From a virus (taxonomy: Duplodnaviria; Heunggongvirae; Uroviricota; Caudoviricetes), in IMG/VR virus record IMGVR_UViG_2778261069_000008: a stretch of 25,564 nt of DNA; one strand, written 5' to 3'. A program made the translations under genes and the position numbers. Position 1 is the first letter of the stretch; every line of letters starts with the position of its first letter. This document shows positions 24,369 to 24,574 of this stretch, one piece after another. The notes below the pieces were generated by a model. The model saw only the letters and a program-made list of their open reading frames with translations. It was not told the origin of the DNA and did no database searches.

Positions 24369-24574
24369 TCAATGATAACGGGAAGGCCAGATTTGCTCCG
24401 GCGTCACGCCTGGTTCTTCGGCGATAGCCGTTCACCTTTAGGGCAGTGGTGGCGGATCGCGTTCGCCAACGTGGAAGAGGCCAGCCCTGCCTTACGGGAA
24501 GCCGCCGCCAGCGACGTGCCGCGTTTTCTCAGCGCGGCCATGATATCGGCTGGATGCCAGTCCGGTTGCGTCAT
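24369..24574 (-). pseudogene. Ner/Nlp-like HTH DNA-binding gene with an apparent frameshift
   Basis: From the ATG at 24574: MTQPDWHPADIMAALRKRGTSLAAASRKAGLASSTLANAIRHHCPKGER then stop after 56 codons; the conserved Ner C-terminus (IAEEPGVTPEQIWPSRYH) is in the adjacent frame, implying about 1 nt lost near 24418-24422. Confidence 0.5.

Follow-up and report, generated by a model that had tools for sequence, protein, structure and literature searches.

The window analysed here, a stretch of 25,564 nucleotides, carries on its minus strand a regulatory gene of the Ner family (Pfam HTH_35, PF13693) that is most probably a recent pseudogene, disrupted by an inherited deletion of one base; we place the probability of this reading at about 0.88. 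Such a young pseudogene, in a regulator family that is well known, is nothing out of the ordinary. A preliminary description had proposed that a Ner-like regulator was inactivated by a 1-nt frameshift, and had named a real pseudogene, a sequencing error and a programmed shift as possible explanations. The first of these is upheld by the data presented below: the deletion allele was present in 20 of 20 related loci, intact sister alleles of 68 aa exist, and none of the 120 closest homologues ends at the premature stop. For annotation, the gene is best labelled a frameshifted Ner/HTH_35 pseudogene, rather than a 56-aa 'transcriptional regulator' or an error to be polished away, and the deletion together with a linked W44C substitution serves as a marker of one lineage of its island in E. 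albertii.

An ATG at 24574 opens a reading frame of 56 codons on the minus strand (24574..24404), with the translation MTQPDWHPADIMAALRKRGTSLAAASRKAGLASSTLANAIRHHCPKGERLSPKNQA and a stop at 24406-24404. The adjacent (-1) frame reads ...TAIAEEPGVTPEQIWPSRYH up to a stop at 24371-24369, and it is in this frame that the conserved IWPSRY segment is found, as had been described; the same ATG and adjacent-frame stop show that the limits given earlier for the feature, 24369-24574, were exact. The native part of the 56-aa ORF comprises helices 1-3 and the beginning of helix 4. The 1-nt frameshift itself stood, but the earlier residue count did not; 50 native residues precede the shift, not 49. The start of the ORF overlaps the stop of the upstream gene (ATGA), so that translational coupling is kept.

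Searches with the HTH_35 profile, which has a gathering cut-off of 25 bits, confirmed the assignment to a Ner-like family both before and after repair of the frame. The unrepaired 56-aa product matched with E=6e-18 and 65 bits over profile positions 1-46 of 75, and a one-base repair yielded E=7.5e-29 and 100 bits over positions 1-64 of 75; phrog_769 was matched as well (1.8e-28). By score the gene is a member of HTH_35, but the window holds no complete domain through IWPSRY in a single frame, the in-frame match ending at profile position 46. Of the three invariant tryptophans of the family, W6 is kept, position 44 is a cysteine and W63 lies out of frame.

When a database of 5.8 billion clusters was searched, the closest proteins were two intact 68-aa E. 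albertii alleles, P0001 (97% identity) and P0002 (93%). Aligned base by base, the intact GAA CGG CTG ATC GCC stands against GAA CGG CT- ATC GCC in the window; a single G is missing, between 24426 and 24425 and thus within the 24410-24430 interval that had been suggested for inspection, and the identical gap was seen against a more distant E. coli homologue. The missing base is the G of a GATC and lies outside any homopolymer; this is a Dam / MutH site with a small flanking palindrome (CGGC TGATC GCCG). Comparison with intact homologues, put forward earlier as a check, showed that the 68-aa E. albertii alleles keep the G, and the remnant of the C-terminus at 24369..24425 is nucleotide-identical to the intact allele. 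Positions 18901-25437, which make up the whole island portion of the window, match the contigs encoding P0001 at 98% or 94.5% identity, and over this 6.5 kb of aligned island the missing G was the sole indel within a called gene, the remaining indels being confined to the leader that precedes the 156-aa gene and to a stretch without a called gene in the compared locus. As in a frameshift pseudogene, close orthologues are read in a single frame and the window is short of them by one G, an indel that is not a multiple of three. The coordinates of these and the other features are collected in Table 1.

Table 1. Features of the window referred to in the text, with position and strand.
Feature	Position	Strand	Remarks
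Truncated ORF, 56 aa	24404..24574	-	native Ner/HTH_35, residues 1-50; SPKNQA, residues 51-56; premature TGA
Out-of-frame C-terminus remnant	24369..24425	-	IAEEPGVTPEQIWPSRYH and original TGA stop
1-nt deletion site	24425..24426	-	intact GAACGGCTGATCGCC, window GAACGGCT-ATCGCC; codon 50/51
Codon 25, GCT (Ala)	24500..24502	-	Val/Leu/Ile in 117/120 homologues; linked to the frameshift allele
Codon 44, TGC (Cys)	24443..24445	-	TGG (Trp) in 120/120 closest homologues
L55P	24411-24413	-	codon 55, out of frame; Leu in 116/120 homologues
156-aa partner gene	24571..25041	-	upstream; TGA overlaps the Ner-like ATG (ATGA); intact in the window
47-codon leader ORF	25062-25205	-	Pfam Phage_ASH, 33.5 bits, profile positions 42-85/107
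C4-type antisense/immunity RNA	25095..25182	-	RF01695, 76.1 bits (gathering 45); operon leader
isrK-type sRNA with own terminator	25204..25282	-	RF01394, 63.3 bits (gathering 50); first leader element
isrK terminator-like site	25225-25208	-	
Promoter-like site	25317-25289	-	
Compared C4/isrK leaders	window 25080-25282; L004 7290-7520; L001 ~6700-6950	- (window)	
Integrase_1 gene	21739-22641	-	
EFASI RNA	22681-22809	-	RF02957, 94.8 bits; directly upstream of the Integrase_1 gene
MazE/PemK toxin-antitoxin pair	23431-24021	-	
IS629-like (IS3 family) left end	25438..25564	+	interrupts the island
Four tRNA genes (Gly, Thr, Lys, Met)	2780-3089	-	prophage region (1-17764)
sok antitoxin RNA	6005-6179	-	prophage region
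DicF RNA	13430-13481	+	prophage region

In order to follow the broken allele beyond the window, its exact 56-aa product was used as a query and was recovered from 24 or more contigs, spread over 31 blocks of a public collection; carriers included the complete genome CP034212, DDBJ drafts, short-read Logan assemblies from separate SRA runs and a metagenome scaffold. The exact 156-aa partner as query yielded ten further loci, among them the complete genomes CP099910, CP043262 and CP117643, and the names attached to this partner protein identify the organism as E. albertii. All 20 related loci, from independent assemblies of complete, draft, Illumina-type Logan and metagenome origin, had an identical 230-nt frameshift allele, and all six loci retrieved via the intact protein (98% or 94.5% identical) kept the G. 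Among the carriers 12 haplotypes were distinguished in addition to that of the window, differing by no more than 8 SNPs in 6.3 kb, as expected of a heritable lesion, whereas the islands with intact alleles are about 128 SNPs from the window. Carriers also vary structurally, by IS1 insertions, prophages beside mtfA and splits of neighbouring genes. In sampled E. albertii the exact 56-aa product was counted in ~19 contigs, the exact 156-aa partner in 28 and all intact-frame alleles together in ~14; in that sample the broken form of this island gene seems to outnumber every other allele.

Outside this group, complete E. coli genomes contained no close allele, just intact 71-aa homologues of ~83-86% identity on pheV-type islands, and the plasmid collection contained nothing nearer than ~82%. 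The deletion site, with or without the extra base, was not found in species-representative genomes; the representative E. albertii genome evidently has another island variant.

Conservation was assessed by aligning the 120 closest cluster representatives. All 120 homologues are 67-80 aa long and none ends at the position of the window's premature stop, an outcome that would have spoken for a naturally short protein. Each of W6, W44 and W63 is a tryptophan in all 120. The segment lost to the frameshift contains the near-invariant motif IAE..G..PEQIWPSRY, in which I51, A52, P59, I62, W63, P64, S65, R66 and Y67 are invariant or nearly so. A 57-aa cluster member, P0136, was considered as a second truncation and proved to be an intact allele whose gene had been called with a shorter N-terminus.

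Besides the deletion, the window differs from the intact P0001 gene by three substitutions: V25A, a synonymous change at Leu36, and W44C, which is probably a second damaging change linked to the frameshift. The repaired full-length protein with A25 and C44 was absent among 15 billion protein sequences, so that A25 and C44 were seen only together with the deletion. The L55P change, in contrast to these, is common to the window allele and to the intact-frame P0001, and was not present in P0134 or P0002; being probably damaging, it hints from its distribution among the alleles that constraint could already have been relaxed before the frameshift. The 54 nt past the shift display no decay at all, which is uninformative either way because the diversity of the island is so low.

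The intact P0001 protein matched phage Mu Ner (1NEQ) with E=3.7e-21 and EnrR (7F9H) with E=1.9e-20, in both cases over residues 4-67. With Mu Ner, a Cro-like early repressor (PDB 1NEQ/1NER) that is likewise a member of HTH_35, the gene has in common DWH.AD, the SR..G....TLANA helix-turn-helix, the WPKGE start of helix 4 and the IWPSRY end; unlike Mu Ner, the window copy leaves its frame after residue 50 and has W44C, and whereas Mu Ner belongs to a Mu-like transposable phage, the present gene follows an isrK/C4 RNA leader on an island of P4 type at tRNA-Asn. EnrR, a Ner-like nucleoid-associated protein of Edwardsiella piscicida, is also an HTH_35 protein borne on a genomic island, but it is functional, whereas the window copy is truncated, and it has a 10-residue N-terminal extension (helix 0), required for DNA binding, which the Ner-like protein is without. 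In the crystal structure of EnrR with DNA, Tyr57, Arg59 and Arg62 of helix 4 contact the DNA backbone (PMC9023278); by alignment these correspond to W44 (Cys in the window), K46 and R49. E. coli SfsB/Nlp (NCBIfam NF007670) has the fold family in common, yet the intact allele scored 96.6 bits on the SfsB model against an equivalog cut-off of 150 and is therefore not an SfsB orthologue; SfsB is a 92-aa protein of the core genome, the Ner-like protein a 68-aa island product. Projected onto these structures, a shift after L50 would spare little of helix 4 and nothing of the C-terminal WPSRY segment, and the 56-aa product would be unable to fold or bind DNA properly, leaving the gene non-functional.

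These results show the following course of events. In its ancestral form the gene specified a protein of 68 aa, related in type to phage Mu Ner, EnrR and SfsB. Loss of the G from GATC has led the frame astray after Leu50, adding six foreign residues and a stop at codon 57, and the broken allele, with W44C and V25A, has been passed on through a diversifying group of E. albertii strains. From gene order, the intact protein was presumably a Cro/Ner-like repressor whose likely target would be the island's own regulatory region. Its loss would be expected to have little polar effect, because no translationally coupled gene lies downstream.

It could be argued that the genome truly has the G and an intact 68-codon gene, and that the base was lost in sequencing or assembly. 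Single-base indels are frequent artefacts of assembly. Methylated motifs are known to trouble nanopore basecalling, and a base missing from a GATC (Dam) motif is of this troublesome type. The identical deletion was nevertheless seen in all 20 loci, which span four complete genomes, Logan short-read assemblies, drafts and a metagenome scaffold; it is completely linked to one haplotype family, to W44C and to V25A, whereas the six loci of other haplotypes read the same GATC with its G. This linkage, together with the intact reading of the motif elsewhere, rules out a platform artefact, and the occurrence of only one indel within a called gene of the aligned island indicates that the assembly is not indel-prone; an error is, in our estimation, exceedingly improbable. 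We regard with equal disbelief the proposal that a programmed -1 ribosomal frameshift or transcriptional slippage still yields a full-length Ner-like protein, even though the downstream frame is perfectly intact and -1 is the usual direction of programmed shifts. A check for homopolymers and slippery context, also raised in the preliminary description, detected neither at the shift site: there is no X_XXY_YYZ heptamer in the 27-nt stretch between the target-frame TGA and the 0-frame stop, where a -1 slip would need to take place, none in codons 41-56, and no homopolymer longer than 4 nt anywhere in the Ner-like gene. The RNA beyond the shift was no more stably folded than shuffled sequences (MFE -28.2 kcal/mol; mean of the shuffles -25.7; z = -0.91), with no stimulatory structure apparent. 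The 120 closest homologues and the sister alleles of the same species are single-frame, no homologue beyond the single clonal allele having the two-frame arrangement, and the change of an invariant tryptophan is unexpected for a protein under selection. Taken at the sequence level, W44C and the uniform 67-80 aa of the homologues point to decay and not to recoding.

Less readily dismissed, although still unlikely, is a functional truncated allele, in which helices 1-3 are kept and the product acts as a weakened, altered-specificity or dominant-negative regulator, its loss or alteration having been selected in this E. albertii lineage. The helix-turn-helix core still reaches 65 bits against HTH_35, the ATGA coupling to the upstream gene is retained, and the allele is frequent and stable over 12 haplotypes besides the window's own; a 56-aa fragment with a helix-turn-helix could conceivably keep weak or altered activity. 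Against this, the near-invariant IAE..PEQIWPSRY, including Trp63, is gone, W44C falls at the equivalent of the DNA-contacting Tyr57 of EnrR, and none of the 120 closest family members is shorter than 67 aa. A neutral lesion with clonal spread explains the high frequency equally well, and in these strains the rest of the island is decaying too: its NACHT-like and OLD/TOPRIM genes are split, and IS1 or IS629 has been inserted. A further variant holds that the deletion and W44C did not arise by neutral decay and that loss or change of the island's Ner-like repressor was instead selected; we consider this quite unlikely. If true, it would mean that the isrK/C4-controlled switch has been rewired, together with the neighbouring defence genes (NACHT-like, and Gabija-like OLD/UvrD in related islands), and it would account for the broken allele being the commonest in sampled E. 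albertii. That frequency fits neutral hitch-hiking in a successful clone, with selection for loss also possible. We favour recent pseudogenisation as the reading of this locus.

The Ner-like gene is the last of an operon in which a promoter is followed by an isrK-like sRNA, a C4-like RNA, the 47-codon ORF and the 156-aa gene; both RNAs scored above the gathering thresholds of their Rfam models, upstream and on the strand of the operon. Together, the Ner-like gene and its 156-aa partner would make up the effector end of this isrK/C4 RNA-led operon, a type that is frequent on islands of enterobacteria. The 7-nt loop of the C4 RNA is complementary to two flanking targets, and loop and targets co-vary in three island variants: UUGGAAC/GUUCCAA in the window, UUAGCCU/AGGCUAA in a 98% identical E. 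albertii variant and UUGGUCU/AGACCAA in E. coli EC12. Judged by these pairings, the leader looks like a P4-type RNA immunity system whose specificities would differ between islands. Its layout is alike to that of Gifsy-1 isrK-orf45-anrP (PMC4825925) and of the P4/P1 C4-type immunity RNAs, with a promoter, an isrK sRNA and terminator, a short ORF and effector genes in common, whereas the effectors differ, being the AnrP anti-repressor in Gifsy-1 and the 156-aa protein with the Ner-like regulator here.

The 47-codon ORF, the counterpart of Gifsy-1 orf45, completely overlaps the C4 RNA gene, both being on the minus strand, and some relatives have it joined in frame with the 156-aa gene, the product being annotated as 'ash family protein' (211 aa in L004). 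For Gifsy-1 orf45 it has been reported that the nucleotide sequence is conserved and the protein sequence is not (PMC4825925). Calls of 'Ash family protein' in this operon leader overlap the C4 RNA gene, and the conserved core of the 'Ash' family may largely mirror that gene.

The 156-aa partner was always found upstream of the Ner-like gene and has 653 homologues across Enterobacterales; together with the HTH gene it occurs in ~820 of 5426 complete E. coli genomes. It had no match in Pfam, PHROG or NCBIfam. AlphaFold models it (pLDDT 87) as long helices packed into a bundle, plus a C-terminal beta hairpin; in Foldseek no PDB entry came below E=0.05, the hits being generic helical bundles. In P0216, a 198-aa protein from an ENA contig of another organism, a member of the 156-aa family is fused in frame to a Ner-like protein; the junction lies before 'LKKRGTSL', so that the HTH protein has lost its N-terminus. 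Such a fusion is another route to disruption of the gene pair.

The window as a whole is E. albertii chromosome, consisting of a lambdoid prophage, mtfA, tRNA-Ser, tRNA-Asn (18898-18973) and then the integrative island, which is of P4 type and is located at tRNA-Asn. The island begins with a P4-type tyrosine integrase, followed by a 95-aa ORF, Integrase_1, MazE/PemK, the Ner-like gene and the 156-aa gene; the other island genes visible in the window are all intact, and the Ner-like gene is the only broken one there. Homology to related islands stops at 25437, and the window ends within the IS629-like element, which was inserted ~25 bp upstream of where related islands begin a divergent 1468-aa gene. 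Past that point the relatives continue with this gene, whose NACHT-like hits are faint, and with a Gabija-like pair of OLD-TOPRIM and UvrD genes. In related E. albertii islands (L009-L028) the NACHT-like, OLD-TOPRIM ATPase and UvrD genes are variously split (for example 321+1138, 412+935 and 266+367 aa) or hit by IS1, and in L009 the 156-aa gene has been removed by IS1; decay affects the entire island and has proceeded independently in many strains. Over positions 1-18977 of the window, the best match in E. coli was 97.9% identical.
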